This document shows positions 10,990 through 32,672 of a stretch of DNA of 64,000 nucleotides, piece after piece (within the stretch, counting starts at the first letter, position 1; each line of letters begins with the position of its first letter). Made by a program: the position numbers and the translations under genes. The stretch spans positions 3,100,001 through 3,164,000 of the forward strand of contig CM038999.1 in assembly GCA_017499595.2 (NCBI GenBank), written 5' to 3'. Under the pieces are notes generated by a model. That model saw nothing but the letters and a program-made list of their open reading frames with translations. It did no database searches and was not told the origin of the DNA. This DNA comes from Psilocybe cubensis (lineage: Eukaryota).

Positions 10990-11161
10990 TTCTGGTTTCT
11001 CTGTTGCATTTGCTTTCTTCTCTCTCATGTGTATTACTATTGTCAACATACTTTCTGAGAACAAAATCTATTGAAATGAAGCGACTCCCAAAATAGAAAA
11101 GATAGACCCAATTAAGGAAATTTTGCGTGCCATAAGGTTAGGGTTAGAAGAAAGAAAAGTC

Positions 11162-11344
11162 AAAAAAGAGAGCCTGCCCAGCCAGAGTGGCCGAAGCAGG
11201 ACAGGAAAATATTGAGACGGTGCATGAGCCTAAGCCCATACAAACCGCAGACACCCCCTGAGGACATGGTCGCCGTGCTATGGGGGATTTCCACGGCCCA
11301 CAAACCCAGGTACTTGAAGGGGCTTATGCCATCAAGGTAAGTAT
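11162..11344 (-). ncRNA. U1-like small RNA gene, copy 1 (intact, with promoter); non-canonical internal loops
   Basis: Minus strand starts ATACTTACCT (the U1 5' end). nt ~10-24 can pair with ~115-133 closing a multi-helix domain, then a single-stranded AATATTTTC (Sm-site-like), a 3' stem-loop CCTGTCC...GGGCAGG and a T6 run. Body identical to the copy at 24326-24508 while flanks diverge. Confidence 0.7.
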
Positions 11345-11404
11345 GAGTTGTTCGGATGTCGAGGCATCGCTTATATATCATTCAGCCGTGCACGGACCAT
11401 TTGA
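11345..11404 (-). promoter_or_regulatory. snRNA-type promoter: upstream element TCAAATGGTCCGTGCAC (-60..-44), TATA (-34..-27), conserved -17..-1 block
   Basis: The same blocks at the same spacing recur at 31053-31112 with diverged spacers. Confidence 0.7.
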
Positions 11405-12457
11405 TGTCGAGCTCGCATCCTAAGCGAAAGGTCACTTGATCGTCGCGACTTGGCGTCTCCCTTTTGCTTCATTGACACTCGCTCGGCATTCCATCGTTCG
11501 TCTCTACTCCATTCCAAAGGTCTTCACTACAATCAGAAGCCGTTAAGAGCTATCCAAGTCAATGCAAGCAAATGGCTCAACTCGGACCAACCTACTATGA
11601 AGAGCAAGCAGGGGTATACTCGGCGGCCATAGTGGATCATAAGGTGGTTTACCGCGAACAACCATACCAACTCCTGAACGCTTGACTGATTTCCTGGATC
11701 CGAGAGCCGACTTTGTTCTCACCATCTCCTACATTTTCCTCAGTGGCTGTCATTTCCAATCCTTCTGAAAGGTCTGGCTTTGTGACCGATTTGTCTCTAC
11801 TTCTGGCGTCGAGCCTATCCGTTCCCATAGGCATCCTCAACGTGTTCGGCTTCTGTAATGGAACACTAATGTTGGGCGCCCTTTTCTTCATTGCTCAGGA
11901 CGACGAACGGGCGCAGTAACAAGCAGTGCCACTTTGCTCCCGAGCCCGTTGTTGGATTGCCCGATCCACCAGTACTACGGATCATGCATCATGCCTGATA
12001 CTCGTCTACCGTTGAAAGGTAGTATTACCAGGGGCACAAATAGTGCCCAAGTTTGTTGGCGTCCCAAACACAAATTAATATCTATGTTGTTGCTACTTGG
12101 AATATCTCGAAACCTTTGCTTAACATTGTTCAAGATAAGGGCAGTGCGTTAGCTGTTACGGGACAAAAGCACGGAGAACGTGAGAGATGGGTGGTGGCGT
12201 TTTAGTTCTCACTTGGTGTTCTATACTCCGAAGTGTGCTTTGCCATGACGTGCAAGCGAAACGCAGTTAGTTCTACCGCAAACCCACCATGATAAGAGAC
12301 AGTACCTTCCGCAGACCAGACGCAGGAAAATCTACGACGTGTCGCAAGCAATGAGTTTGAAACGCGATACAACCGTTCCTCTTCTGGCCGTGTTCACATA
12401 CGGATTTCGTTATTCCAGAAGTACTAGCGCACTGCGCTATGCCTCGAATTTAGGAGA

Positions 12458-12467
12458 CTTGGTTGCT

Positions 12468-12473
<6 letters not shown>
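12458..12473. repeat. Left target-site duplication of LINE (cttggttgctgctctt)
   Basis: Identical 16-mer at 20603-20618; last TT is ambiguous with the poly(T) run 12472-12503. Confidence 0.92.
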
Positions 12474-12504
<31 letters not shown>

Positions 12505-12706
12505 GTGGAGCGTTGATGTTACTGTTGTAACACCAGTCCTTTCGTGCGCGACTTTTCGACACTCAGGACCCGCTAGTTGATTTCAAGGACAATTGACCTT
12601 AACGAAAATATCCAGACCGTATTCACCCTGGGGAAATGCGTTTAAGCACTTTGTGTGGGACTCAAGACTAAACCGTTGATGGATCCTCCTGCGTGCCCCC
12701 CCATAC

Positions 12707-15700
12707 TTACCTTCCACGCCTCCTTCCATCAATCCTTCGCGGTTCAATACCCACTAAAACCCCAAAACTGCCTACCCAATCTTTGGGTAGGTTCTCCTCA
12801 TCCCGGAGCGTGCCTCGCCACGTGTTAAATACCAGCTTTTTTCGCAAGGCTTTCTTACCGTATTTGGCTCGCGTCAGTACGGAGTCCAATTCTAACCTCA
12901 GGTTAATGGTTTTCACCCATCTATTATGGACTTCGATTCCTGATACCGGTATCCCGTCCTCATTCTGGATTACTGCTTCGCAACGTAGTTTCCATATTAG
13001 ATATGCTGATTCCGTCATCAAGATTCGGAGCAGCCTTGCTTCCCCCTCAGCATTGTCCACCCGTTTGCCTTTTTTCTTATCACGTTTCATCGGTCTTGTG
13101 CTTAATATTATCTCTTCTAGAGTTGGTTCCGGCCAGGGGCTGCTAGTCCTCATACCCCAGAGTTCCCTCGCTAGGTTCCATATTTGGGCTCGTCCCGATG
13201 TCGGACACTTCTCAATGATGTGAGTCATCGACTCCGTCTCTCTTCCACATTGTTTGCATACGCTACGTTCCTGGAATTCTAGCCCAAAACCTGGTTTTCT
13301 CCAGTTATTTCCTATCATATAACCATCGTGAATCACCATCCATAGGAAGTTACGGATTGTTCTTGTTACATCCTTGTTCCTAATAGCCTTCCAGATTAGG
13401 CTGGTTTTATAATCCAGTTCCTGATTTTCTTTGGCAGCCGCCTCAATTTTTGTCAGGTTAGTCCGTGTTTGGTGTCGTTCCTCATAGTTTCTCATCTTGT
13501 GCTTACGGACTAGCTTGTATGCTTCCGATTGTGTCAGATTTGCTATGTCCGCTCCGGATAGATTCCACCCATTCATGATTTGTGTGTCTGGTTCAGCAAC
13601 TACTCCTTGGAGGACTCCAATGTCAGCTAGTTTTTCAGCATCCTTATCTCGTTGGTTTGGTTCACGATTTTGTTTCCACAGTATAATAGGTTCACAGCTC
13701 AGATGTCGCAGACTAGCAATTGTCGCTCGGACAAGTTTCGCGTCGGGCACTCCAAGGTAATCTCTTCGTTCATTTTTCATTGCATCAATTGTCAAATCCT
13801 TGACTGTGCCAATAGAATCAATTTCTACTGTTAGTTTTTCAGAGCTCGCTGTGCGGTCCGCAAGCAGTTTGATTGCGGTCAGTTCGCCTATTCTATCACT
13901 TTGTTCTGGGCTTGTTGACAGTTTGAGTGATAGGTTTTTTGGGCTACCGTCGCTAACAAACACACCGATTCCGGTTGTTTGTGTCTCCTTGAATGAGATA
14001 GTACTTATTGTTGCATGTATCGTGGTTATCTCCCCCTCGAATTTAGCTTGTATCTTTGGTAATGTATTGTTCGGCTCTCCCTCTGTGAATACTCTGAAGA
14101 TATTTGCAAGCGATCCACTAGTTTCAATGGTCCTACTAAATGGATATTTTGTAATGGGTTTGTCCTCGTTTGCGTATTGTTCACCTATCGGACGAGTTTG
14201 TGGGTGCCATTTTATGGTAAGCGTTTCTAGCAGTTCTTTTGCCTTTTCAAAACATTTATTTGGGTTTTCACATCCTAGTGTATTGCGTGCTGTGGTGCAT
14301 TCGTTGCATTCGCACCAGCTATCTCTTGTGTGGTCCACACTTTCAAGTACGTTGCGGATCCTTTCAATTTGTCCAACACTGATTGCATTATGGTTGTTTC
14401 TTATGCATTTACTGGCACCACTGTGATTCAGCCGTCGCAGCCTTGGAGCCGCTGCCTTATGGTACCACAAAGGCATTTCTCGTCTTATGTCTGACGACAC
14501 TTCAAGGCATTCAATGCGGGTATTATATTCCGCTGCAATTTTGATAAGCCTTCTTACACTGGGCGCTGCCTCCGTCCCTTGCATGGTTGTCCATGATTGC
14601 AGAAAAATATTTACATGCGCTTCAGGCGGTACATTTTTCTCCGTTTTTGGTACTTGTTTTGACATCAGGGCATCCGCAACAACTGCCCATGTTGGTCTGT
14701 CTGGTCCAAAGCTCAGGTACGACTTTAGCCACATCAGCTCAATAGCCTTGTTTCGAGCGTTAATATCCAGGACTGCCCTTCCTCCAGCGGTGATTGGCGA
14801 GTATATAGTTTTTTCATTTACTGGTATTAATTTCCGATTGTCCCAGAAAAACTGGCGCACACGTTTTGTTATACGTCTTTCAACCTCCACAGGCATACCT
14901 TGGACTGTTGTCAGGTACTGTGTCATCCCGCCTATTACCATCTGTATAATTAGGCGTCTGCCTTCCATCGTTGGGTGACTTTTCTCCCACCGTTCAAGAT
15001 TCTTGTCGATCTTTTCTAATACGGGTGCCCAGACATCTACCGTGTCAACATTATTACCTACCCATGCTCCCAGGATCCGGACGGCTTCGCCATCTTCTGC
15101 TATATGCATATTTGCTGGTATAGGTTCCCCATTTTGTTTTGTCGTACGTGTTTCTATTACCCTTGCTCTGTATTCCGATGTTCCTATTGGGATGATTTCG
15201 GTTTTCTGAATATTAAACTTGGCCAGTGATGCTTTACACCATTCATCAAGTATAGCTTGTAGGTCATTGAAGTCATCTTTCTCCGACAAGAAGGTTGTCG
15301 TATCGTCTGCAAACAGGTTGGCAATTAGTTTTTCTGTATTATTGGGGATCTTATATCCCTCTAGGTGTGATTCTCGCAGTCGGGCAGCTAAAGGTTCAAT
15401 TGCCAGATCAAAGAGCAGACACGACATAGGATCTCCTTGTCGCACACCCCTAGTCACATCAAAGCACGAGCTAAGGTATCCATTCACCATTACTTTTGTT
15501 TTTGCATGCTGATAGAGCGATTGAATAGTTGTAATAAATTTTTCCGGGATATTGTAGGTGCGTAGTGTTTTCCATAAGTATTCATGGTCTATCTTATCAT
15601 ATGCCTTTTCCTGATCTAGGGCTATTATCAGGCCATTCTGCTCTGTCGCCTCGGCATACTCGATCATCATCTCAATCAGTTTTGTTTGATCTGCTATTTT

Positions 15701-18040
15701 TCTGCCAGGTACAAAGCCAGCCTGGCTTTTATGTAGTAGGTTGGGTGCTACCTGGGCAAGTCTCATTGCTAGTACTTTTGTGAAGATTTTGTAATCTGTG
15801 TTGAGTATTGTTATTGGTCTATAGTTAGATATCTCATTGCGATCGTTCTTTTTATATAGTGGGCACATCCACCCATCCGAAAAACCGGTTGACGAGTCAA
15901 CTCCGTGTTCTTCTATATCGTTAAAGACGGCGGTTAGTAGTCCCACTATATTGAATTTTTGAGGGCTCATATCTTCTTTGTCAACATTCACTTTGTCAGT
16001 TTCATTTTGACGCTTAGCTTCTGTTTCCAGGTATGTTGCATTTAGCTTTTTCCACAGCTCATAAGTAATTCCGTCGGTTCCCGCAGCTTTGCGTAGCTGA
16101 CCTTTTGAAAGTGCCATGCTAACTTCAGCGGCATCAATTTTTTTCTCAAGGTCGCTGACTTGATCGCGTCTCACTCTTGTTGTGATGGCTCCGAGGACTT
16201 TGTCTGTACTAGCCTCCCTAAGTCTTGGATCCACATCGGTGCCTAGGTTCTGTAGGTTTTCGTGGTAATCCCTTGCCAGCTCTGCCATCTTTGGAGAGTG
16301 TTTTTCGTATGGGTCGCCAATCATTGTGGCATGTGCACCTTCCGCTTGTGCAACTGGCTTTCGTAGTGCTCGTATTACATCTCTGGGTTTGTTCTCTTTA
16401 TTAATGTTTGACCAGTATGTACTGATTGTTTCCCCTTCCAGTCTATTCAAAGCTGCAACATTGGTTCGTCGTTTTTGGTGGCGGCTAACCTCCAGTTTTT
16501 TAATTCTGGTTCGTATCTCCGATGCCTTTCTGTTTCGTGTTTCTTCGTGTTCATCACTATTATTAACCCTATCAAGCTCTGTTTCTAGATCTCGTAGTTG
16601 ATTAACAACTTTAGGCACTATGGCCCTGTCTCTGCTTCTTGCTTTTTCCATGATATCCTTTTTGAACGATGCAAACAGTCTCTGGACATTTTTTGTGTCT
16701 GTCCTTTGGTGTGAAATAGCTTCTGCTCGTTTCATTGTTTCTAAACCTTTCTTGTCAATATAGTCCAGAAGGATCCTATCCTTTAGCAGATATGAGGGTA
16801 ATGCCCATCTCCCTTTGCCTACTTCTGGTGTATTTTCGTTAACAACCTTGACTGACACCATGCGGTGGTCAGCATTGGGAACACCACTCGTACAGATTGT
16901 CCATTCTCGTGCCGTTTCCAAGATTCTTTGCTTGACATAGATGCGGTCAATTCGTGACTGTGATGCCCGACCATTCTGTTGTTGGAATGTATAGGCCTTA
17001 GAGTCCGGGTATGTGTCTCTCCATCCATCGTGGAGTCTTGCCAGCGTTTTGAGCTCATCAAACGCCTCTTGTATAGTATTAGTATCTCTATCACTTTTCA
17101 TAGGGCATCGGTCTATCTCACTTTCCACCATGTTAAAATCTCCCAACATTATGTCAGGGTACGCAGATGGGTGTTGTTCTAGGTACCTCTTTATTTCTAC
17201 CCAGAAGGGGCCATTTTCTGGAGTCTCGCATGGAGCATAGACGGCCAATATAGTAAGCTCATCCTCTCCATGCCACTTAATTTTGACGCTCAGAGCCCTT
17301 CCTTTAGTTATTTCAGTTGATTTAGCATGTGTTGCCTCGATTAGTTGTTTGTTGATTACTATTGCTACCCCGCCCTTTCCAGTTGGGTTCTGTGGGTCCG
17401 AGCTATAGAAAATTTTCAGTCGACGGCCAAATTGTCTCTCAATCTCCCGACATTTTGCTTCGTCCATGTGGGTCTCTTGTAGGGCCAAGATTGCGATTTT
17501 ACGTTCACGCATCTCCTGATTTATGTGTAGCCATTTATTATTCGGATGATTTGAGTTAGCACTTCCAAATCCCTTCATATTTAGCGACGCTATACCAATA
17601 GCGGCTTTTTTGAATGCTCTATCTGCATTCCGGCGTGCTCTACGGTTTAGACCATTTATATTAGCTACCATCTGGGTAGTTGCTTGAGACGGGCGCTCAT
17701 GGCGGTCCCCATCTTGAGCCATATCCATAGGCTCCCCCACAGTCTGTGGGTTGTGCTGAGAACTTGTCCTCAGGCTTTGCGCAGTCTGCGCTACCAGGTA
17801 TGCATCTGGGTTTTGTGTAGGTCCGTTTTGGTTCCCACCATCGCCCCTGTTCTCAGTCAGGCGATCTGTCACAGTCTGTGAGTCAACGGTGGATGATCCA
17901 CCTCTAGGTATCCGCTGATCATAATCTGGGTGCCCAGTAGTCGTCTGGCTGCACATCCCAGACTCCCTTTGGCTCCCTAGAACTCCATTTCCATAAACTG
18001 CCGCCCGATCCCTAAGGATGGGCCCAATGGAGGAGGCCAC
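12707..18040 (-). CDS. LINE ORF2: AP endonuclease, reverse transcriptase, degenerate RNase H, CCHC zinc finger (first ATG at 17956)
   Basis: APE motifs IASLNMKG, LALQETH, LGDFN, SRIDRIY, ADH; RT motifs NYRPITILNTDYKIF, LDQEKAYD, GVRQGDPMS, LFADD, ILG; Zn finger CKQC..ETESMTHIIEKC. Confidence 0.95.
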   Translation of the reverse strand: MASSIGPILRDRAAVYGNGVLGSQRESGMCSQTTTGHPDYDQRIPRGGSSTVDSQTVTDRLTENRGDGGNQNGPTQNPDAYLVAQTAQSLRTSSQHNPQTVGEPMDMAQDGDRHERPSQATTQMVANINGLNRRARRNADRAFKKAAIGIASLNMKGFGSANSNHPNNKWLHINQEMRERKIAILALQETHMDEAKCREIERQFGRRLKIFYSSDPQNPTGKGGVAIVINKQLIEATHAKSTEITKGRALSVKIKWHGEDELTILAVYAPCETPENGPFWVEIKRYLEQHPSAYPDIMLGDFNMVESEIDRCPMKSDRDTNTIQEAFDELKTLARLHDGWRDTYPDSKAYTFQQQNGRASQSRIDRIYVKQRILETAREWTICTSGVPNADHRMVSVKVVNENTPEVGKGRWALPSYLLKDRILLDYIDKKGLETMKRAEAISHQRTDTKNVQRLFASFKKDIMEKARSRDRAIVPKVVNQLRDLETELDRVNNSDEHEETRNRKASEIRTRIKKLEVSRHQKRRTNVAALNRLEGETISTYWSNINKENKPRDVIRALRKPVAQAEGAHATMIGDPYEKHSPKMAELARDYHENLQNLGTDVDPRLREASTDKVLGAITTRVRRDQVSDLEKKIDAAEVSMALSKGQLRKAAGTDGITYELWKKLNATYLETEAKRQNETDKVNVDKEDMSPQKFNIVGLLTAVFNDIEEHGVDSSTGFSDGWMCPLYKKNDRNEISNYRPITILNTDYKIFTKVLAMRLAQVAPNLLHKSQAGFVPGRKIADQTKLIEMMIEYAEATEQNGLIIALDQEKAYDKIDHEYLWKTLRTYNIPEKFITTIQSLYQHAKTKVMVNGYLSSCFDVTRGVRQGDPMSCLLFDLAIEPLAARLRESHLEGYKIPNNTEKLIANLFADDTTTFLSEKDDFNDLQAILDEWCKASLAKFNIQKTEIIPIGTSEYRARVIETRTTKQNGEPIPANMHIAEDGEAVRILGAWVGNNVDTVDVWAPVLEKIDKNLERWEKSHPTMEGRRLIIQMVIGGMTQYLTTVQGMPVEVERRITKRVRQFFWDNRKLIPVNEKTIYSPITAGGRAVLDINARNKAIELMWLKSYLSFGPDRPTWAVVADALMSKQVPKTEKNVPPEAHVNIFLQSWTTMQGTEAAPSVRRLIKIAAEYNTRIECLEVSSDIRREMPLWYHKAAAPRLRRLNHSGASKCIRNNHNAISVGQIERIRNVLESVDHTRDSWCECNECTTARNTLGCENPNKCFEKAKELLETLTIKWHPQTRPIGEQYANEDKPITKYPFSRTIETSGSLANIFRVFTEGEPNNTLPKIQAKFEGEITTIHATISTISFKETQTTGIGVFVSDGSPKNLSLKLSTSPEQSDRIGELTAIKLLADRTASSEKLTVEIDSIGTVKDLTIDAMKNERRDYLGVPDAKLVRATIASLRHLSCEPIILWKQNREPNQRDKDAEKLADIGVLQGVVAEPDTQIMNGWNLSGADIANLTQSEAYKLVRKHKMRNYEERHQTRTNLTKIEAAAKENQELDYKTSLIWKAIRNKDVTRTIRNFLWMVIHDGYMIGNNWRKPGFGLEFQERSVCKQCGRETESMTHIIEKCPTSGRAQIWNLARELWGMRTSSPWPEPTLEEIILSTRPMKRDKKKGKRVDNAEGEARLLRILMTESAYLIWKLRCEAVIQNEDGIPVSGIEVHNRWVKTINLRLELDSVLTRAKYGKKALRKKLVFNTWRGTLRDEENLPKDWVGSFGVLVGIEPRRIDGRRRGR

Positions 18041-18505
18041 ATCCTCTCCTGGTGCGACAGCCCGAGGTCCATTTCTCCAGCATCCTTGGGGTCTACCTAA
18101 GAGGGTAGTGTCTAATCCTGTATTGTTAGTAGGGTTAGTTGCACAAATAAAAGTTACCTAGAGAGGACAGGCCAAGCCCAGTCCAGGTCTGATGGTTTCC
18201 CGACGTCTCCGAGGTGTTGTAGAACACTACTCTTCAACGTAAGGATTGCCTGTATGTCCGGCGCGACCCCATCAGTAGCCTTGACTCTTCTTTTAAAATG
18301 CCTTCGACTTTCCTGTTCTAAGCAGTAAATTCGGTGTCCGGCGTTTGCAGAGGCTACTCTATATTTAGTGCAGACTCCTCCGACTTCTTCTAAATCTACA
18401 TTTAGGCCCAGACTGGGTTTTCAGCTCTTTGACAAGCATTAAGATGGATGACACAATTTATTAACATCACTATTGAGACATATTATACATGTACGAGGAC
18501 ATATG

Positions 18506-19846
18506 CTAGCCCCGGCGTTTGCTCACAGGTACCTTGGTCCAACCTCCACCAGAGCTTTCTCTGTTGCTTCCTCGCTGGTGGGGCGGCTTGCCTCGTCCCC
18601 GACCACCGCGACTCGGTCCAGAACCTCCGGCACTGGTTGCCTCTGCTCCCCATTCTTCCTCCTTTTCAACCTTTGCATTGTTTTTGGGGCCGAGCCAGTC
18701 TTCAATTGCTGGAAAAGGGCATTTATGGGCAGGGTGGGTGTCGGCCTTGCACCAGATACAACCAACAAAGGTGCGGTTTACGATGAGCTTGTGGCCGTCC
18801 GGGGTAACAAAGGGCTGCGCTTTCTTGATGGAAACAGGTTTTGCTTTCCCTTTGTTGGTGACTTGTACCGATGCTTGACCCGGTGCCCGCATGCAGGAGA
18901 GGAGGATCTTGTGGTCTCGAATATTTGCTGTCGCAGGCTTGCCTGTCAGCTGGAAGATGGGATTTGGTCGACCCTGAGCATCCAGCGCGTCGATGAAGGT
19001 GAGTTCGAGTGTCGAGGTGATTTTGTCGACCTGCGCACCCACAGAGAGGCTAGCGTTGCCGGCTGCCGCAATGTGGCGGCTAATCTCTGAGCGAACGTTC
19101 AGCTCTTCCCAGAAGCGCTTCTTGATAGTCCCCATGACTTGCTGTCGAGCACGCTTGGTATCTTCAACGGCATCCCCGGTAATATTCATGATAACCCAGC
19201 TCTGAACGGATGTGTCAAAGGCAATTGCATTGAACGTGATGACAGGGGAGATTGCGAAGGTTTGTTGCCATAGGAGGAAGCTGCGCATCTCTGCACTCGC
19301 CCGCTTGAGGATCATTGGCCATGGTCCTTCGAAGCGACGCCTCTTAGAAGATTCGTTTCGAGGGATTGGTTTCGCCAACTGGATTTCATCGTTGCCTTCA
19401 AAGCCCAACGATTTTAGGAAGGCCACTATCTCGCGATTGCATGTTGGGTTCTGATCGTAGTACCACTTCCCGGCGCCAAAGGGGACGATAGCTATGTGAT
19501 TCGCGGGATCCCTACTGATTTGCTCCACCTGTTCCTCAGCCATATTGTGCACAAGTTGTTCATAAGGGATTACAACCCTTGGGAAGTGAGCTCTCGTGTA
19601 TTGAGCACTGAGAGTGGGGGGGAGCGTGGGGATTTCGCCTCTGCCAGCAAGCTGGAAATGTGGATTCATTTCACGCTCAGCGGGGGGCGTATCAACGTCG
19701 AATGGGTCGGGGAAGGTAAATGGTGCGGGCAGGGTGCCGTTCAACATCTCTTCATCTACTTCTTCTTCCGATGCCCCGCTACCTCTGCGCCGTCTTTTCC
19801 TGCGCTGGGCTTCTTCCTCGTTAGAGGGGGTACGGTCGTTCTTCAA
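18506..19846 (-). CDS. LINE ORF1 nucleic-acid-binding protein (track start is TTG; first ATG at 19747)
   Basis: Basic NLS-like RRKRRRR, zinc knuckle CIWCKADTHPAHKC (CX2CX4HX4C), RGG-rich tail; lies upstream of ORF2 inside the TSD-bounded element. Confidence 0.85.
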   Translation of the reverse strand: MKNDRTPSNEEEAQRRKRRRRGSGASEEEVDEEMLNGTLPAPFTFPDPFDVDTPPAEREMNPHFQLAGRGEIPTLPPTLSAQYTRAHFPRVVIPYEQLVHNMAEEQVEQISRDPANHIAIVPFGAGKWYYDQNPTCNREIVAFLKSLGFEGNDEIQLAKPIPRNESSKRRRFEGPWPMILKRASAEMRSFLLWQQTFAISPVITFNAIAFDTSVQSWVIMNITGDAVEDTKRARQQVMGTIKKRFWEELNVRSEISRHIAAAGNASLSVGAQVDKITSTLELTFIDALDAQGRPNPIFQLTGKPATANIRDHKILLSCMRAPGQASVQVTNKGKAKPVSIKKAQPFVTPDGHKLIVNRTFVGCIWCKADTHPAHKCPFPAIEDWLGPKNNAKVEKEEEWGAEATSAGGSGPSRGGRGRGKPPHQRGSNRESSGGGWTKVPVSKRRG

Positions 19847-20498
19847 ATTCGACAGTTTGGAAGGGTGAGTGTGCCACTACTATGACACAGGGCAGTCAAG
19901 ATATGGGGAGATTCGTGGGCGGGGGCGTGATTGGGGATCTTTTATATGCCTATTTGGTGCCACTCAGTGAAAGGGCCGTACGAGTCTTTGTAACTATTGC
20001 TTTGCTCGCCTTTGTTCCATCTGATTCGGTTGTGACTTAATACTAAGTGCCACCGTGGCATACCTCCAACTTCGTATTCCAGTGGCACACGGTGTCTGGG
20101 TCGGGGGCGCATAGCCCGCCTTCTGCGATGGTTCCGAGGCTGGGTTTCGCAATGTTGAGCTTGAGGGGAGCAGTAACGAAGTCGTTGGTGTCACCAAGCT
20201 CGGTTCGTTAGTCATTGTTTACACGTGGGTTTACCGCGTACAGTTCTCGTGCGGAGACCACTGTCCACTGTCCACTGCAATAATCATAGCATAACGTGGT
20301 GTATTCAAGTTCGCGAATAATACACAGATAGTATATAGTTTGCGGTATGCGTGGACTAATAACGTCTATATGGCTCTGCGCCACTTTCTGCACGATTCCT
20401 CAGGATATCGACAGAGGCCACAGACTGTGGCCGGGTCTGCCTGAGGCAGTCCCGTTACATCGCAGTCTGCGATGGTTTAACCTCACACTGAAGTAGAG

Positions 20499-23436: not shown

Positions 23437-24325
23437 AACCTGGAAGACAAAAAAAAATACAGCAACCTCTTTCGCATTCACTCACTGCGATTTGTATCTT
23501 TTTTATATCTTGATACCATTTCACACTTTGCTTTGTTTTATTTTTTTTTGCAGTGTTGACATAGTATTCTATACCCCACCAAGTAACGACCCACATACGC
23601 ATATCGACGACACCTTCTACCGACATCATTCCCCCACATCCTGTCATTCCCACTACCTTTATACCTAATATTTCCAACTGTTCATTTACCTATTCCCACT
23701 GCACATTTCATATCCGATATATCCTACCCAATTTTACCCCCACAAAAATCCACCCGTGTATTCTTTATCCATCTTCTGTTTTTCCTTTGATTTTCGACAT
23801 GTATACGACGTGCGCGTAACATGTATTTTTTAGTTTTGTGTACCATATGTTTACTCTACCTCGCGCCGGCTTGCTCCAACCGTGGATAGATGTGTTTTTG
23901 TTATGTAGTGTCGGGCCCATTACCGCTGTTCCATCCCCGTTTTCTTGTGTCACTACTACCAAAAACCTTGACTTCTCTTGAACATTTTTACTTTTGTAAA
24001 TTATTGATAATACTCTATCTAGTTACGCATTAAAATCGCAGTAATTGAATGGAATTGACCTTGACTGGTGACTGAATTGTTATCGCAGAAAGTGGATTTG
24101 CGAAGATACAGTATTTGCTCCTTCTGGCAGTTGTGTACTCCCACACATTACACGCCACCTGAACAGTGTGCATCTTAACATTTGGTACCGAACTGGATGC
24201 ATTAAGGCAGCCTATTTATTATTTCACACGAAATGCACACAAATTTGTAGTTGTTTTACCAAAAAAAGATATATTTGTAGCCAATAAATGTGTACATAGG
24301 GTTAGGGTTAAAAGAAAGAAAAGTC

Positions 24326-24508
24326 AAAAAAGAGAGCCTGCCCAGCCAGAGTGGCCGAAGCAGGACAGGAAAATATTGAGACGGTGCATGAGCCTAAGCC
24401 CATACAAACCGCAGACACCCCCTGAGGACATGGTCGCCGTGCTATGGGGGATTTCCACGGCCCACAAACCCAGGTACTTGAAGGGGCTTATGCCATCAAG
24501 GTAAGTAT
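24326..24508 (-). ncRNA. U1-like small RNA gene, copy 2 (body intact, separated from its promoter by the Ngaro insertion)
   Basis: Identical to 11162-11344; its upstream sequence resumes at 31053. Confidence 0.7.
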
Positions 24509-24813
24509 AAGATATATTTCGCTCGGATTAAATTGCACTTTTTCGGAATGTGCTAAATTTGAGTAGAAGTGAAAGGAGGAGAAGGTGACAGAATATCCGA
24601 GTTATCTGATATTCCGTGGGTGCGTAGGGCTTTGGCGGGTGGTCAGGAAAGACCAAGTGAAGGTCACGAGAAATGACCGGATTCGAAGTGAGACACGCAA
24701 AGCGCGAGTCGTGAGGAAACGAAAGCGAGGAGAAAGGTTTAGCCGCCAAAGGCCTGAGCGCTTGGATCGAACCACGTGGAAATCGCAAACGAGAACCAAC
24801 GGTGGCAGTACCA
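24507..24813 (-). repeat. Ngaro split direct repeat B2
   Basis: Identical to 25152-25458. Confidence 0.95.
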
Positions 24814-24851
24814 AACACTGGAAAAAGGAAAGAAAAGGGAGAGGAGGGTGG

Positions 24852-25153
24852 GCTCAAAAGAAAAATCGGAGGCGAGTCGAGGGGAAAGACGAGATGAGAC
24901 TGGACGAGTCTGAAGACGAGCCGGTAGGGGAGAAAAATACGAGGACAACTTTTATTATATAGATGTACAGAAATTAAAGAATCAACAGAAGAGACTGGGG
25001 AGGTATGACAGGTGAGACCTGACAAGTGTCAGGTTCAGGAACCGGAAGACGTTAAGACGATCATTAAAACAGAGAAGACAAAACTCAAATAAGCAATCGT
25101 CATCCTCGCTGCTATCTTATCCATAGATGAGTGCTACGCACTCATCGTGGAAT
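24852..25153 (-). repeat. Ngaro split direct repeat A2
   Basis: Identical to 30751-31052; abuts B1 through the shared AT (25152-25153). Confidence 0.95.
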
Positions 25154-25458
25154 AAGATATATTTCGCTCGGATTAAATTGCACTTTTTCGGAATGTGCTA
25201 AATTTGAGTAGAAGTGAAAGGAGGAGAAGGTGACAGAATATCCGAGTTATCTGATATTCCGTGGGTGCGTAGGGCTTTGGCGGGTGGTCAGGAAAGACCA
25301 AGTGAAGGTCACGAGAAATGACCGGATTCGAAGTGAGACACGCAAAGCGCGAGTCGTGAGGAAACGAAAGCGAGGAGAAAGGTTTAGCCGCCAAAGGCCT
25401 GAGCGCTTGGATCGAACCACGTGGAAATCGCAAACGAGAACCAACGGTGGCAGTACCA
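25152..25458 (-). repeat. Ngaro split direct repeat B1
   Basis: Identical to 24507-24813. Confidence 0.95.
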
Positions 25459-25682
25459 GACGGAGCGCAAGCTCACCACCAACGCCGTGGGTTCTCGGGC
25501 CACAAGGAAGACCCAAGCAGAGCTGAGCACCAATGTTAGAAGAGGACGGACGTTGATATCAAACCAGATGTCAAGAAAATAAGCATGATTTAATTGAGTG
25601 AACACAGGATAAGTTTATACCGGAATAAAGTAGCGAGAAGGGAAATATTGCAGCAGAGAGTAGGTAAATAAAGTACAATGGT

Positions 25683-27557
25683 CTATAAGTTGAGAGAAGC
25701 AGCATTGGAGAGCGAGGATTGCGAGATGTTACAGTTGATGCGGAATTGTTCGACAGAAGCGGAAACATTATCTAGGTTTGATTTGGAATATGCAGCAGAT
25801 GTACAGGATGGGATGATTTCAGCCATACGGCGCCAATAAAGAAGGAAAGCGAGCGAGGTCCAGCCACCGGTGGCGGCCACAACCTGGAGAGAAAGAGATA
25901 AGAGATATGAAGGGAAGGAGATGAAGAGAAATACCTCAGGAGGGACACCGGCAAGGAGGAGGGTAACCGCACCACCAATGCGGAAGGAGTGGCCGGATAT
26001 GTGAGCGAGGTTAAGACGGTCCCACACTTTGCACACAAATTGCAGAAAAGTGTGTTTGTACAAGTGGGCCCAACCCCCATTGTTGGTGCGGTAAGCGAAG
26101 AGAGATGATAAGGGAGGAGGATTTCTGTTGATAATCATATGGTTGAGAAGAGCAGAGACAGGGCACAGAGCATCTCTGCGGGCAGTGATGATGATATCTG
26201 CGCCCTCCTCGTGTGTGGTTTTGGTCCAGGGGATGTGGAAACTAGCCGAGACGGCAGAACCATTGATATAGCGAAAGTTTATGAGAGAGTCGGAGGCGCA
26301 AACGTTGAGCAGTGGAGAGAAGGAGGAGGCAGACTTGACAGTGGTTTCCCCAAGACGACGACAGCCGAAAAAGGTAACAAGGGCACAAGCCCAAACTGCC
26401 GCATCGAAGGGTTTTGAGATGTCGATGGAATTGCGGAGGGCAAGAAGATGTTCGATGGAAACCGGAGCACGCGGAGGACGCTTGAAGGCTACACCAGCCT
26501 TACTGGCTGCTTTCCGTGCAAGAGACAGCCATTCGTTGTCTCCGTGCCAATCAGCCCCTTTGAGGACATGCCAAGCTCTGACACCGGCAAGCCAGGATTT
26601 GACTGTATTGCCAGAAACGCGACCGGAGGCCCAGTCAACAAAGGCAGTAAGGGTAACGATGGATGCGGGCATGCGGGAAGGCTCGGAGATGGAAGATTCG
26701 TCGCAGAATTCATGAAAACGTTTGAGACCTGCCGCATAGGTGGATTTTGAATTATCAGCGAGGGCCCGTGCCACGAGGTCGTAAGCCCGGTCCACTACAG
26801 CTGGGGGATGAGATGAGGACAGGTCCATTCTGTGAGACTGATCAAAAGAGGAAGTCCAAGAAGTGAGGCGAGCAGCAGCAGGAACGTTGGGGCGGAAAGG
26901 ATGAGATGATGATAAAGGGTTTGATGAAACAGGAGGAAGGTTATTTAACACGGGAGGTGAAGAGACCTTAGCTAACGAAGGGGAACAGGATGGTGAGGGA
27001 AGGGGTTGTGAAACTGGAGAAAGTACTGGAATCTGAGGGTTTAAATAAGAAGAAGGGGATCCGGGGGGAAGCAGGAAAGGAACAGGGCGAGGGTGAAACT
27101 TTTTGGAAGAAGATAGAATTGGAAGTGAAGAAACTTTAGAAGGGAAAGAAGAAGAAGAGCGGCTACGACGAGGTTTACTAGAACGTACAATTTTAGAAGA
27201 AGGGGGGTCAGAAAGCAAAGAGGAAAAGGGATGAGATTGGAACTGTGAAATGGGGATGTTTGATAGCGACACGCGGCGCGGAAGGGAAGTCGAGGAAGCG
27301 GACTCCCCACACGTGGAGCATCGGCCTTCCCGAGGCCCTTTATGCGAACAATGCATTGGGCAGGAAAGAGGAGCGGAGCTCGCCAGGCAGCGAGAAGCGA
27401 ACCTCCAATTCAAAGCCGAGAGGACCACCCAATCCGCGCGAGAGGGGGTCAGCAGGATTCTCTTTGGAAGCAACGTAGGATAATTCTGGAACAATATAAA
27501 TGGAAGAGAGGACAGCACAAGAACGACGGATGGAGAGGTTGATGTGAGGGTTAGCAC
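25683..27557 (-). CDS. Tyrosine recombinase of the Ngaro element (start uncertain; 51-nt intron 25884-25934)
   Basis: SAM-like N-domain ALADNSKSTYAAGLKRF; catalytic motifs FFGCRRLGE, IPWTKT, GHSFRIGG, GGW, LLYWR. Confidence 0.92.
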   Translation of the reverse strand: MLTLTSTSPSVVLVLSSLPFILFQNYPTLLPKRILLTPSRADWVVLSALNWRFASRCLASSAPLSCPMHCSHKGPREGRCSTCGESASSTSLPRRVSLSNIPISQFQSHPFSSLLSDPPSSKIVRSSKPRRSRSSSSFPSKVSSLPILSSSKKFHPRPVPFLLPPGSPSSYLNPQIPVLSPVSQPLPSPSCSPSLAKVSSPPVLNNLPPVSSNPLSSSHPFRPNVPAAARLTSWTSSFDQSHRMDLSSSHPPAVVDRAYDLVARALADNSKSTYAAGLKRFHEFCDESSISEPSRMPASIVTLTAFVDWASGRVSGNTVKSWLAGVRAWHVLKGADWHGDNEWLSLARKAASKAGVAFKRPPRAPVSIEHLLALRNSIDISKPFDAAVWACALVTFFGCRRLGETTVKSASSFSPLLNVCASDSLINFRYINGSAVSASFHIPWTKTTHEEGADIIITARRDALCPVSALLNHMIINRNPPPLSSLFAYRTNNGGWAHLYKHTFLQFVCKVWDRLNLAHISGHSFRIGGAVTLLLAGVPPEVFLFISFPSYLLSLSLQVVAATGGWTSLAFLLYWRRMAEIIPSCTSAAYSKSNLDNVSASVEQFRINCNISQSSLSNAASLNL

Positions 27558-30500
27558 TGCGGCCCTTGGTAAAGGCGCCTATAGTGCCTTGATTATCTGA
27601 GTGAATCAGGAGGCGGATGTTGGATAGAGGTAAGCCCTCAATGATGTAGATGAGGAGTTCAATAGCGATGGTTTCCAGCCAACAGATGTCGCGTCGGCCA
27701 ACCTTCCAGGAAGAGGACAACTGGAAGGCCGCCCATTTCCCATCAATAACAATACCAATGCCCCAGGAGGTGCTGGCGTCCACGAAGATCTGTCGATCAA
27801 CGACGGGACCAAGCGGTGAAAGGAGACGGGTGATGCCCACAGAGGATAAAATGGGAATCCACCAACTGACGTCTGTCAAAACCGATGGAGGGGGGTAACG
27901 GCTTGCGTATTCATTGTCATTAAAGGAGGCAGCGAAGTTAGAGAGGGAAGGGAGGTGTGAACGACCAAGGGGATATACAATGGTAATGTAGCAGAGAGAA
28001 CCGTGCAAACTCTCCACCTGACTGAGTCGACACCGATGGCCACTGAAATTGTCAAGGAAGTGACGAGCGCGGGCGAGGAATTTTAGGCGCTTAGGATCGG
28101 CCAACGCAACTGTGTGGTTGGCAAAGTCCCAGACCAGGCCCAAAAAGATAGTGGAGGAGGAGAAAGTGCGAGTGCCCTTGGTGGGATGCCAAGGGACACC
28201 TAGGTCACTGACATGCGACATCATTGAGTCCCAATCGTAGTCGTAGCGGAAGGCTCCGTCCACAAAGGGGCCAGAGAGGGAGGGGCTGCGAAGGATGTTG
28301 AGGTCATCCTCGTACTTCAGGATAGGCTTGACGCCAGATGCAATCCAGATATCAACTAGAGCATTGGCAATCATGCCTGCATTGGAACTGGCGCAAGCAG
28401 CACCGAAGGGATGAACATGATCGATGTAGAACTCGTCTTCCCCAAGACCTTGAACAACAAGCCATGGCTTGTGGTCTGGGAAGACAGGGCATGTGCGGTG
28501 GAATTTTTCAATGTCTACCGTCACCGCCTGAGTGCCCGGGGGGGCCATAGCAACCTGAAGAAGGTATCAGAGAGGAAGAGGGAAAGTCAAGATAAGATGA
28601 AGTAGGAAGGGAAGCAAAGAGATGAGGGAGTGCATTGTGCGGATAGAGGAGAAAGGGAAAGGTGGAGGAGGAGGGAGGGGAGGAGAAAAGGAAGGGATGA
28701 AGGGAGGGGAGGGGATGAAAGGAGAAGGAGGGGATGGAGGAGAGGAGGATAGACGTACGATGTCAGCCACGCGGACGGCAGTGTCAAAGCGTGTCGGAAA
28801 ATCGGATTTACGGATGAAAGAGTTCACCGATGGAACTTGGGAGGTAGCCTTGGAGAGATTGCGACAAATACGAATTTTGTCGGGCTCTCCAGGAGCTTGA
28901 GGTTGGATTGCAACAATGAGAGGGGAGGATTGGAAAGGTCCGCGGAGGATTTTTTCAATGAGATCTCTGGGGAAAGGACCAGTCATACGACCAGCAGAAA
29001 CCTCGTCATTGATGTAGGCCGAAACCTCCGCAGGAAAGAGAGAACAAGAGGGATGGTTTTTTAGGATGTGGGTGGAGGAGAGAGGAGGCATGGGACCAAG
29101 AGGAAAGCCGGATGAAAGGTTGCGAACAAGGAGTGGGTAAGTTGAGGAGAGGTTGAATTTTTTGAGAGCGGAATGAAAGGCAGCGGGTGAGTAGGGAGTG
29201 ACAATGCGCGAAAAGATATTGGGGAGAGTGTGTAAAGAAGGAGAGAATGGGGGGCGGACATGAATGCGAGAGGAAAAGTCGGGATAAAAAAGGCGGGGAG
29301 GAGAAGAGAAGAAAGATGAATTAGTTGTAGGCAGGTCTTGCCCGACAGGTGAAGGAGAAAGCGTGATGGGATTTAGAACCACAGAAGCAGCAGATGTGGG
29401 AACGGGCAGTGCCGTGTCCGCATGGGGTAGGGTTGTTGGGGCCCCTGATGTTAAAGGAAAGACAGATTTCTCTGTTGTCAGGAGCAAGGAGTTTCCCATC
29501 TTGGGAGTGGGCCCAGGCATTCTTACCATCTGGGAACTTAGCCGGGACTTTGTCTTTGGGATGGGAGCCGAGGGAGTGACCGACCTCTGCACAAAGGAGG
29601 CAGATAGGTGGGCCGGTAGATGACCTATTGCCTGATTGAAAAAGAGTGTTGGAGGAGGAATTGCCAGAGCGGCGATTAGAGGAGAAGGATTTGAAACGAG
29701 ATACGGACTCTTCGAGTGAAGCAAGTTTGGAGGAGAGGGCTGCCACCTGAGATTGTGCAGCCTGGGCCTGTCTGTACTCCGAGATAGCATGGTTAAACGC
29801 GGTCTCGTAGTCAAGAACAGAGAAACGTTGAAGGAAAGTGTGAGTATCACGACGCAATTTGAACTCTGCCACCTTCCATGCCGGATAAAGGGCGACAGAA
29901 TCAGGGCGAGAGCTCCAGAAAGAAAAATGACCAGTCCAAATGGAAATCCACTCATCATCAGAAGCGCGCTCCCTCTGAAAGCGGGTATATTGATCGGCAG
30001 CTTGCATGAAAGAACCAAAATCAAGGGAAAGCTCTTCCCCCAATTTGGCGGTAAGCTTTTCGATGTCGAGGATGTAGAGAGCTTTCGAGTCTGGAGAAAT
30101 TGAATTGGACTTCTTGATAGGAAGGCTGGCAAGGTTGTCAATGATGTAACGGAGACTTTTTTGAGTGAAAAAGGGAAGAGGGAGATTAGCCTGAGCTTTT
30201 TCCGTCTGGAACATGATTTCTGGAAAAGCAATGACGGTAGGAGCCATCGGATCACGAATAGAAAGGGACGAGCCTTGCATGCATCTGCGCTTGGCAATTC
30301 TGTCCTCAGCAGAGGAAGGGAGGTCTTTGATGGAAGAGTCCTCGATAGATCTTTTCTGTTCTCTGGCAAGGGAGTCCTGTTCAGAGAGCCAGGCAATGAG
30401 ATAATCAGGGATTTCATCTTTATCCAGATATTTTTTAGCAATAGCAGGAATTCTGAGCTGAGCCTCGTCATCGGGTGAAAGAGAGATAACGGAGGCCTCG

Positions 30501-30582
30501 GGGGATCCGGGCATAGGAAAAGCCGCGGGATCCAGACTATGATTAGCAGTTTTGGTGATGCGCTCGAGATTTTTTGCCACAA
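27340..30582 (-). CDS. Reverse transcriptase/RNase H of the Ngaro element (conserved part starts ~29240; 204-nt intron 28555-28758; start uncertain)
   Basis: GPFQSSPL, KIRICRNLS, VDIEKFHR, HPFG, YEDD, FLG; RNase H FVDAS, WLE, HSDN, NPADPLSRG. Confidence 0.9.
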
Positions 30583-30745
30583 TGGCCTTGTTGCGAGCCA
30601 GTTTCAGAGGCAGAGGCAGAGATTTTAAGACAGCATAAGCAGCGGGAACAGCACGGGTAATGTGCGCTCTGGGAGGATTAGCAGGCGGCGCTGGGACGGG
30701 AGACGGTGCGCGAGAGTCGTGAACGGATTGGCCGGCTTCAGACAT
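29321..30745 (-). CDS. Gag-like ORF1 of the Ngaro element
   Basis: ATG just inside of repeat A1; coiled coil followed by Cys/His motifs CLLCAEVGHSLGSH and C..FN...C.H....HICCFCGSKSH. Confidence 0.85.
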   Translation of the reverse strand: MSEAGQSVHDSRAPSPVPAPPANPPRAHITRAVPAAYAVLKSLPLPLKLARNKAIVAKNLERITKTANHSLDPAAFPMPGSPEASVISLSPDDEAQLRIPAIAKKYLDKDEIPDYLIAWLSEQDSLAREQKRSIEDSSIKDLPSSAEDRIAKRRCMQGSSLSIRDPMAPTVIAFPEIMFQTEKAQANLPLPFFTQKSLRYIIDNLASLPIKKSNSISPDSKALYILDIEKLTAKLGEELSLDFGSFMQAADQYTRFQRERASDDEWISIWTGHFSFWSSRPDSVALYPAWKVAEFKLRRDTHTFLQRFSVLDYETAFNHAISEYRQAQAAQSQVAALSSKLASLEESVSRFKSFSSNRRSGNSSSNTLFQSGNRSSTGPPICLLCAEVGHSLGSHPKDKVPAKFPDGKNAWAHSQDGKLLAPDNREICLSFNIRGPNNPTPCGHGTARSHICCFCGSKSHHAFSFTCRARPAYN

Positions 30746-30750
30746 GGCGA

Positions 30751-31052
30751 GCTCAAAAGAAAAATCGGAGGCGAGTCGAGGGGAAAGACGAGATGAGACT
30801 GGACGAGTCTGAAGACGAGCCGGTAGGGGAGAAAAATACGAGGACAACTTTTATTATATAGATGTACAGAAATTAAAGAATCAACAGAAGAGACTGGGGA
30901 GGTATGACAGGTGAGACCTGACAAGTGTCAGGTTCAGGAACCGGAAGACGTTAAGACGATCATTAAAACAGAGAAGACAAAACTCAAATAAGCAATCGTC
31001 ATCCTCGCTGCTATCTTATCCATAGATGAGTGCTACGCACTCATCGTGGAAT
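30751..31052 (-). repeat. Ngaro split direct repeat A1 (5' end of element)
   Basis: Identical to 24852-25153. Confidence 0.95.
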
Positions 31053-31112
31053 GAGTTGTTCGGATGTCGGTGCGATGTATTTATACTGGCTATCTGTGCA
31101 CGGACCATTTGA
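31053..31112 (-). promoter_or_regulatory. Displaced promoter of U1-like RNA copy 2, now directly upstream of the Ngaro element
   Basis: TCAAATGGTCCGTGCAC at -60..-44, TATAAATA at -33..-26, CGACATCCGAACAACTC at -17..-1; matches 11345-11404. Confidence 0.75.
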
Positions 31113-31313
31113 GCTTGTTTACACATCTTTTTGATCTCGTGCCTCGCCTTCGGTACCGATTCTTGACCACTTCTAAAAGCTTCTAACTCGAATAGTCGTT
31201 GAGGACCTGATGCATGGCTTACAAAATTGATATATATGAAGTTTCTTTTCACCTATGTACAGTTCAGCTTGCCAAATTGTAGTCGCAGATCTCCCACGGC
31301 GACTGTTGGCCAA

Positions 31314-32672
31314 TCATTGAATTTTAACTCGGTGAGTGGCCGGTTTCTCGTCCTCTTCTTCGTACAAGTTAATATCCCAAACAGGATCACACGTAGTATA
31401 GGGGATGTTAAATCTGCACAACAGTTATTGGTGTTGTCAATTTACACGCAAAGTACGCTTACCTAGTGCGATTGCCCTCGACGATACTGGAGACCTTTGC
31501 ATAGTCTTCTGGACTTAGCTCGATCTGCTGGAAGTTGGACAAGATGCGGTGTTCCTGTACGCTCTTTGGGATGACCGAATATCCCCGCGCTGCCCCCCAT
31601 GCTATCAATACTTGTGCTGGCGTGGCATTCAACTTCGAGGCTGTCTCTATAATGACATCATGGTCTGTCAACTTTGGTTTTCCGAGCACTGTGTACAACG
31701 GGTGTCAGTAAATGCAAACTTTCATATGAAATATTGCTCTCACGCACCGTTGTTTCCAAGAGGACTGTACGCGGTGATGTGGATGTTCTTTTCTTTGCAA
31801 TATTCAACCAAGTCGTCTTGAGGAAGGAGAGGGTGTGCTTCGATTTGGTTCACGATCTGCACGACAGATTAGTATTCGCTTCATTGCGTTGACGAAGTGG
31901 GCATTAAGAAAGCCGTCTTACTGGAACAACGCCTGTCGCATTGATAATCGCTTCCAAATGTTCAATAGTGAAATTCGACACTCCCAAAGATCTGACCTGT
32001 TCGGTATGTTACAATTTTTCTCTGGACTCGTGTTGATTTGATGCACCTACTTTCGACTTGGGGATTTTAATCATCGCTTTCCATGTATCGACCAAACTTG
32101 TTTCAGTATCCAATTCGACTTGTCCTTCCTTCGTGGGGTGAGGAGGGAAGAGTCCTCTTCCAGAGGCAAATGCAACTGGCCAATGAACAACTACGGATTG
32201 TCGAGATGTCAGTATTAACACAGTGTGGCGCACTTCCACAGCCGCAGCTGTCATTGCTATGTCTAAAATGGGGCACTTACGATATAGGTCCAAATACTCG
32301 AGTCCGAGCTGGGTGAGTGTCTCGTTGAGCTCCTTCTCGACCTCTTGCGGCTGATGTGCAGAGTTCCAGAGCTTCGATGTAATGAAAAGCTCTTCGCGCT
32401 TGACGACAGAGGGGATGACTTTCTTGAGCGCAGCACCAACTTCGTCTTGATTGCGATACACCATCGCGAGATCAAGGTGTCGGTACCCATTTCTTACGGC
32501 AATCTCAACCTAGGGACATAGGCGATCGATGAGCATCGTTTACAATGTTTGACATCATATCTATCCAACGCACCGCTTTCTCGACTTCATGAGGTTTGGA
32601 CAACCATGTCCCTAGTCCGATCTGAGGAATCTTCGAACCGTCAGAGAGGGTGATCGTCTTTCCAAACGACAT
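31314..32672 (-). CDS. Aldo-keto reductase (AKR1/Gcy1-like); multi-exon
   Basis: [71 protein letters not shown] at ~32760. Confidence 0.95.

Follow-up and report, generated by a model that had tools for sequence, protein, structure and literature searches.

What kind of RNA is encoded by two identical units of ~180 nt on the minus strand of a 64-kb stretch of DNA (contig CM038999.1, positions 3,100,001 to 3,164,000; analyzed at its full length and hereafter called the window)? An original prediction, made from the letters alone, had noted a layout like that of the U1 small nuclear RNA (snRNA) and left two alternatives, a very divergent U1 or an undescribed U1-variant snRNA working with other proteins. 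We find that both repeats are very probably basidiomycete U1 spliceosomal snRNA genes, whose RNA has diverged but is orthologous to U1. They belong to a known class and represent no new class of RNA; this is the ordinary but divergent U1 of its lineage, encoded by an RNA gene that is real, under selection and abundant. Homology to U1, the structure of the RNA, its conservation, the architecture of the gene and an insertion that split the second copy were all observed directly, and they are presented in turn below together with the explanations that compete with U1 orthology.

Homology to U1

The 5′ end AUACUUACCU stands exactly at 11344-11335 and at 24508-24499. From it extend two RNA bodies on the minus strand, copy A (11344..11162) and copy B (24508..24326), which are 100% identical, as had been described from the letters. 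The identical span begins ~2 nt ahead of the first A, includes a run of six T (T6; 11167-11162 in copy A) and extends ~35 nt further; the sequence farther upstream is unrelated between the two copies, and copy B has no promoter directly upstream. The window contains three occurrences of the motif ATACTTACCT, where chance would give 0.07. Its third occurrence (12703, plus strand) was rejected as a U1, being the antisense of a perfect AGGTAAGTAT that ends an open reading frame (ORF) of a long interspersed nuclear element (LINE) described below. A search with nhmmer and a profile of the family returned copies A and B as the sole matches in the 64-kb window.

When the general U1 model of Rfam (RF00003, clan CL00005) was searched alone against a stretch of 187 nt, it aligned over its entire length (model positions 1-166 of 166) to 11172-11344 on the minus strand (27.1 bits, E = 2e-5). 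The alignment places every helix as well as the positions of stem-loop 1 (SL1), SL2 and the Sm site, and the 5′ end, helix H, SL3 and SL4 are also aligned. The original prediction had named a strong full-length match to ordinary U1 as an outcome that would refute novelty; the match obtained has that form, being full-length and significant, but not the strength, being weak. The resemblance comprises the 5′ end AUACUUACCU, helix H, a four-way junction with SL1-SL3, a U-rich Sm-type strand and SL4, within a length of ~173 nt. The departures from the model lie in the loops and the Sm region. The SL1 loop reads CUUCAAGUACC here and GAUCAaGAAG in RF00003, to which the window RNA is aligned as U--UCAAGUACc; the SL2 loop combines AUAGCAC (CAUAGCAC) with a 16-nt insertion, as opposed to CAUUGCAC with 3 nt in the model; and the Sm region is AAUAUUUUCCUG here versus AUAAUUUgUGgUAG there.

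A comparable case is the enlarged U1 of budding yeast, which has a separate Rfam model (U1_yeast) and is likewise a fungal U1 too divergent for the general one. The window RNA differs from it in retaining a compact size and the four-way junction. No match to U1_yeast was reported in the Rfam searches, which is weak evidence, given that only the best of several overlapping matches in a clan is kept. A yeast-specific U1 model is mentioned in Lopez et al. 2008. Beyond that source, the literature on U1 in basidiomycetes or Agaricomycetes within reach (most subscription journals lie outside it) yielded nothing on this form of U1.

RNA structure and its conservation

With positions in the RNA of copy A given as 11345 minus the coordinate, the 5′-splice-site-binding end occupies positions 1-10 and helix H positions 12-16/125-129. 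SL1 has its stem at 17-25/38-46 and its loop at 26-37 (CUUCAAGUACCU); SL2 has its stem at 47-62/87-102 and a loop at 63-86 that starts with AUAGCAC; SL3 lies at 103-111/116-124. An Sm-like single strand follows at 130-142 (AAUAUUUUCC) and then SL4 at 143-156/162-173, the whole being encoded on the minus strand. The minimum free energy (MFE) fold leaves the 5′ end unpaired and forms a short closing helix with three hairpins, then the U-rich single strand and the 3′ stem-loop, at -70.2 kcal/mol (z = -2.9; 1 of 200 shuffles folds equally well).

Relatives were collected by scanning metagenome contigs with a 20-base pattern from the Sm region, the least variable stretch, which was found in at least 120 stretches; all counts of relatives, aligned sequences and flanks in this text are among the matches listed from these. 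ATACTTACC stands at the expected distance in 102 of 120 stretches, 13 are cut by the end of the contig and five are without it. Full units were obtained from 97 loci and comprise 82 distinct sequences with 80.5-96.0% identity to the window copy. Of the five, two (L049 and L095) were rejected as chance occurrences in unrelated GC-rich DNA, and the other three (L021, L064 and L079) are the defective members described below. Together with the window copy, the 82 distinct relatives form an alignment of 83 sequences (A2), in all of which the first 18 nt are invariant (83/83).

From this alignment, RNAalifold recovered the same architecture with 53 pairs, 19 of which show compensatory changes. In the consensus structure 98.6% of cells are paired, and none of 500 shuffles reaches the observed value in any of five measures; when the 3′ partners are slid by 1-3 columns, pairing falls to 32-52.5%. 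Compensatory changes occur in 6 of the 9 pairs of SL1, 8 of 14 in SL2, 1 of 8 in SL3 and 4 of 12 in SL4. Helix H never varies and has no compensatory pairs, and a small hairpin predicted inside the SL2 loop has no pair that changes on both sides; both are uninformative. Covariation in the 83 sequences supports the four-way junction of U1 and SL4. The U1-like layout seen in the letters is reproduced by the MFE fold and by the consensus alike. The GCCGTG/CACGGC hairpin that had been listed with it is not a conserved pairing: GCCGUG pairs, with covariation, with the 3′ strand of the long SL2, whereas CACGGC is part of the invariant loop of SL2.

The loops at the positions of the U1-70K and U1A sites depart from the consensus. 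The U1-70K loop GATCANGAAG, reported absent, is indeed not found inside the unit even at two mismatches, and the SL1 loop lacks the U1-70K consensus GAUCAaGAAG with up to two mismatches allowed. Across the 83 sequences this loop consists of an invariant CUUC, a nearly invariant A, three freely varying bases and then A with CC-like bases, for a family consensus of CUUCAnnUACC, and the RF00003 covariance model aligns it to the position of the U1-70K loop. The reported lack of ATTGCAC (the U1A loop) is correct in that no exact copy lies inside the unit, but the very position of the SL2 loop is taken by ATAGCAC, one mismatch from the U1A heptamer (minus strand, 11275-11281 and 24439-24445). Among the 83 sequences AUAGCAC (CAUAGCAC) is present in 70, the canonical AUUGCAC (CAUUGCAC) in 10 and other single changes in three. 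Behind the heptamer comes a nearly invariant extension of 16 nt, and the ~20 nt of conserved loop exceed the needs of a U1A site. The Sm-like site had been called atypical; the strand AAUAUUUUCC is U-rich and without the usual G. This strand aligns to the Sm region of the model, and no variant of it is listed among reads aligned at 80% likeness; its conservation in A2 is not independent, as the strand lay inside the search pattern. By analogy with U1, the window RNA would bind an Sm ring and U1 proteins.

These departures could instead mark a U1-variant snRNA that exists beside a canonical U1, sharing its 5′ end but engaging other proteins, for instance a lineage-specific one on the 20-nt SL2 loop. 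Such a variant would account for an SL1 loop and Sm site off the Rfam consensus, for the invariant 16-nt extension beyond a U1A-type heptamer and for an Rfam score below threshold. It would also suit the diverged extra copies in the DNA runs X12 and X13 of two related organisms, each of which holds several copies spanning 11128-11359 with 7-22 differences. However, the family is very widespread (at least 120 stretches, 82 distinct forms) and always comes with the complete apparatus of an snRNA gene; every U1 element is aligned; and the canonical CAUUGCAC in 10 of 83 sequences indicates that the SL2 site drifts within the family. A canonical U1 was seen neither in the window nor, at E up to 10, in 15 relatives' loci, which had been chosen for the divergent family. 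We consider a separate variant snRNA unlikely. The suggestion of other proteins found no positive support, the SL2 loop being one base off the U1A heptamer. The alternative of a very divergent U1 is the one supported, through the full-length sub-threshold match to RF00003, covariation, the invariant 5′ end and an snRNA-type promoter.

Animals have variant U1 (vU1) genes and U1 pseudogenes, and the multiple diverged copies within one genome in runs X12 and X13 recall them. The present family differs in that it is conserved as a whole across many species, promoter and 3′ box included, and is apparently no minority variant.

Gene architecture

Every element of the gene is carried by copy A (11400..11131, minus strand). 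Upstream lie TGGTCCGTGCAC, which resembles a proximal sequence element (PSE), at 11399-11388 (~-55 to -44) and a TATA box, TATATAA, at 11377-11371 (~-33 to -27). The conserved 3′ flank (11161-11131) consists of a pyrimidine-rich spacer and then CTAACCCTAACC at 11147-11136, a box of CCCTAA repeats. The 3′ flank of copy B (24325-24290, minus strand) has its box, TTAACCCTAACC, at 24311-24300. The gene unit measures ~290 bp in all and runs from the PSE-like GGTCCGTG at ~-56 over the TATA box at ~-33, the body and the T-run to CTAACCCTAACC 16-18 nt further on.

The same order recurs in the relatives. All 81 distinct upstream flanks carry GGYCCGTG at -58..-54, usually as ATGGTCCGTGCGC, and the promoter box (A)TGGTCCGTGCRC at ~-58..-47 corresponds to 11388-11399 and 31096-31107 (minus strand) in the window. 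A regular expression found a TATA-like box at -35..-30 in 67 of the 81 flanks, the other 14 having TTATAAG at that place, and the PSE-like box (near -56) and the TATA box (near -33) are ~24 bp apart in all relatives. Downstream, a T-run directly follows SL4 in 82 of 82 distinct flanks (longest stretch 4-18 T, with at least five in 80 of 82). AACCCTAACC is present in 81 of 82, and in 80 of these 81 it lies 16-18 nt past the T-run. This 3′ box amounts to two and a half telomere-type repeats (CTAACCCTAACCYTA, CCCTAA x 2.5).

The unit has, outside the RNA body, a conserved proximal promoter element and a putative 3′-end signal, as would suit an snRNA gene transcribed by RNA polymerase II (Pol II). 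This architecture is strong and independent evidence for a functional snRNA gene. The GGTCCGTG-type box is likely the proximal snRNA promoter element in these fungi, and the telomere-repeat box may be an undescribed snRNA 3′-end signal or a site for a Myb protein. No description of a telomere-repeat (CCCTAA/TTAGGG) element behind snRNA genes was found in the literature searched, most subscription journals being outside it. No snRNA-type unit other than U1, with the promoter box followed by the 3′ box, occurs in 725 kb of loci plus the window, where 20 other GGTCCGTG sites look like chance or the displaced promoter of copy B (below). We also examined an RNA running through CUAACCCUAACC as a template like that of telomerase RNA and rejected it, as the box follows dozens of distinct U1 genes.

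Although the architecture points to Pol II as the probable polymerase, the promoter and the T-run can also be read as those of a U1 orthologue transcribed by RNA polymerase III (Pol III), from a type-3-like promoter of PSE and TATA and with termination at the T-run. The ~24-bp spacing of PSE-like box and TATA in all relatives agrees with this, as does a T-run after SL4 in every downstream flank, nearly always of five T or more. A conserved element 16-18 nt past the T-run would, however, be pointless if transcription stopped there. A TATA box is nothing unusual in a fungal snRNA gene transcribed by Pol II, and Sm-class snRNAs normally need the Pol II cap for their maturation; internal A and B boxes were not seen, though none were looked for. 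We regard Pol III transcription as unlikely and retain a Pol II-transcribed U1 gene as the preferred reading.

The split second copy and neighbouring elements

The promoter of copy B lies apart from its body, at 31110..31051 on the minus strand, with AAATGGTCCGTGCAC (PSE-like, 31107-31096), TATAAATA (31085-31078) and CGACATCCGAACAACTCAT. The latter forms the last 20 nt of the displaced promoter and is identical to -18..+2 of copy A; the similarity of the promoters begins at ~-65. Between promoter and body a 6.5-kb retroelement (31050..24509, minus strand) is inserted at the AT of +1/+2. Excision of the element together with one flanking AT dinucleotide restores AACTC-AT-ACTTACC as in copy A, and because the junction of copy A is restored exactly, copy B is recognized as a second U1 gene split at +2 by the retroelement. 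Similarity between the two U1 genes is limited to ~-65 to +220, which is the functional unit.

The insertion explains the diverged 5′ flank of copy B and bears on how the flanks had been read. That they diverge is true upstream, but the 3′ flanks are common for ~35 nt and the real promoter of copy B matches that of copy A. The original prediction had concluded from identical bodies between diverged flanks that the RNA is under selection; the conclusion stands and follows better from the 82 distinct relatives, whereas the argument from the flanks is weakened, the 5′ flank of copy B being a transposon. Copy A is the intact gene, and copy B is probably silenced or aberrantly expressed.

A dispersed repeat or retro-pseudogene family without a function of its own, to which the missing promoter directly upstream of copy B, the LINE between the copies, internal U1 fragments in foreign flanks (L064 and L079, ~positions 22-145) and a deletion that fuses the promoter box to +11 (L021, from the promoter box to +10) might point, can be dismissed with near certainty because it is contradicted by covariation (compensatory changes in four of the six helices counted) and by a promoter conserved, like the 3′ box, outside the transcribed body, while the insertion accounts for the missing promoter and the sequence is present in RNA libraries. 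L021, L064 and L079 are defective members of the family and may be pseudogenes or assembly chimeras.

The retroelement has split direct repeats in the order A1 ... B1-A2-B2, in which A1 (31052-30751) and A2 (25153-24852) are 100% identical, as are B1 (25458-25152) and B2 (24813-24507); the identity of the repeats suggests a recent insertion. One ORF (28566-27340) is reverse transcriptase (RT)-like, its nearest Atlas clusters being RVT_1 (score 0.96-0.97). A second (27578-25683) has a tyrosine-recombinase-like C-terminus, with a weak match to Phage_int_SAM_1 (E = 0.15) and an H-x-x-R ... Y-type motif discerned by eye. At the default cut-off, Pfam returned no RT or integrase match for these ORFs, and a sequence search of the PDB with them returned none. 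The split direct repeats, the RT-like ORF and the C-terminal ORF with its weak SAM-like match recall the Ngaro/DIRS-type tyrosine-recombinase retrotransposons, which we take, as a lead only, to be what the element resembles. No similar insertion was present in the 81 distinct upstream flanks of relatives, and nothing suggests that U1 genes are a target of the element. A perfect 9-bp hairpin, GATGAGTGC-GTA-GCACTCATC, lies near the start of the A repeats at 31011-31041 and 25115-25145 (minus strand) and may be a recombination or priming site. Strong strand asymmetry at 24001-32000 (GC skew ~+0.25, AT skew +0.11 to +0.26 on the plus strand) coincides with the retroelement.

The LINE (~19900..12472, minus strand), an element without long terminal repeats, is located between copies A and B at a distance of 1.07 kb upstream of the former, and touches neither gene. 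Its ORF2 (12707..18157, minus strand, 1816 aa) has endonuclease (Exo_endo_phos), RT (RVT_1) and zf-RVT domains; a 456-aa ORF lies upstream at 18506..19876, and a poly(A) tail of ~34 nt at 12505-12472. A perfect 5′ splice-site consensus, AGGTAAGTAT, occurs at 12703-12712 (minus strand), where the frame of ORF2 stops, and could be chance or an intron donor. Farther along the window, positions 44719-47616 (plus strand) hold an open frame of 965 aa with a RhoGEF domain. The nearest Atlas clusters of this ORF neighbouring the U1 genes are commonest in Basidiomycota, and this one ORF is what suggests the basidiomycete assignment.

Discussion

Several observations weigh against U1 orthology or against parts of it. 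The window copy falls short of the RF00003 gathering threshold (27.1 versus 69.5 bits). Rfam at the gathering score found no match in the whole window, and at E up to 10 none in a 351-nt stretch; among the 15 relatives' loci only three were reported, at 33.6-40.2 bits, each with CAUUGCAC. We attribute the blank results for the window and the 351 nt to filter and threshold effects, because the U1 match surfaced once 187 nt were searched with laxer filters. The SL1 loop shares with GAUCAaGAAG just the UCA core and a later A, and three of its positions vary freely; the Sm-like strand AAUAUUUUCCUG is without the G of the model's AAUUUgUGg. Positions 122-143 of the alignment are invariant by construction, since they held the search pattern. 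Genes for Pol II snRNAs do not usually have a conserved T-run right behind SL4. Parts of the unit are present in six RNA-library runs, and the soil metatranscriptome X15 contributes 482 contigs over 11162-11337, including 74 with at least 99% likeness, but such contigs attest presence in an RNA library and prove neither transcription nor ends or strand. Finally, this divergent family is presumably the cell's main U1, the searches having covered the window and the relatives' loci.

Two details of the libraries are recorded without further use. Run X10, whose type is a guess ('RNA?'), holds an exact contig over 11162-11318 that continues into a different 3′ flank with the box; it was used neither as evidence of expression nor of read-through. 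Contigs of X15 do not cover 11050-11161 or 11338-11500, unlike the DNA contigs of X12 and X13, and no inference was drawn from this (X15 is one RNA study, and flanks differ by species).

If the RNA works as U1 is established to work, its invariant AUACUUACCU end would base-pair with 5′ splice sites of the GUAAGU type. An Sm ring would be assembled on the U-rich strand, and SL1 (CUUCAnnUACC) and SL2 (AUAGCAC plus 16 nt) would bind U1-70K-like and U1A-like proteins through variant sites adapted within the lineage. The CTAACCCTAACC box may help to form the 3′ end of the RNA. Our hypothesis is that the box is occupied by a Myb protein that recognizes TTAGGG and holds up Pol II while the U-tract is in the RNA-DNA hybrid, which would define the 3′ end. 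Alternatively, the box could function within the precursor RNA, as the 3′ box of animals does, or be an activator site whose effect does not depend on position.

Work on budding yeast provides a geometry for such a roadblock. According to Roy et al. 2016 (PMC5052057), the active site of Pol II lies 12 bp behind its leading edge, the main termination peak of SNR8 precedes a Reb1 site by 12 bp, and the distance from a called roadblock to the bound factor downstream is 5-25 bp. The 16-18 nt between T-run and box would fit this geometry as given there. In the same source, Pol II pausing is undetectable at budding-yeast Tbf1 sites, which contain TTAGGG, so that a simple transfer of the roadblock model is weakened. 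The arrangement resembles both the metazoan and plant 3′ box and yeast roadblock termination in placing a conserved element at a fixed short distance past the mature 3′ end. It differs from them in that the element is a telomere-type repeat, unlike the 3′ box of animals or plants and unlike a site for Reb1 or Rap1, and its binder is putative only.

A broader scenario, which we put forward tentatively and as the less probable outcome, is that a large basidiomycete clade has remodelled U1 on two sides. In the RNA, the SL1 loop, the Sm strand and the 20-nt SL2 loop would make up a changed interface of the small nuclear ribonucleoprotein; in the genes, the T-run plus CTAACCCTAACCYTA would serve as a roadblock held by a Myb protein of the Tbf1/Teb1/Tay1 type.

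The observation that drew attention to this locus is largely explained by ordinary biology. The by-products worth having are the conserved promoter, the retroelement-split second copy and the telomere-repeat 3′ box, the last being the most interesting. For annotation, RF00003 at its gathering score fails to report this divergent U1 in the window or in any of the 15 relatives' loci, so pipelines that use the cut-off are expected to miss U1 in these fungi; alignment A2, with its 83 sequences and covariation-supported structure, could seed a clade-specific U1 model. The conserved architecture supplies candidate elements, both promoter and terminator, with which snRNAs might be expressed in mushroom-forming fungi, and the gene unit may serve as a compact Pol II cassette for the expression of small RNAs. 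In evolutionary terms, the family amounts to a natural experiment in how U1 RNA and its proteins co-evolve: with the 5′ end frozen, it marks the extent to which the sites for U1-70K, U1A and Sm are able to drift.

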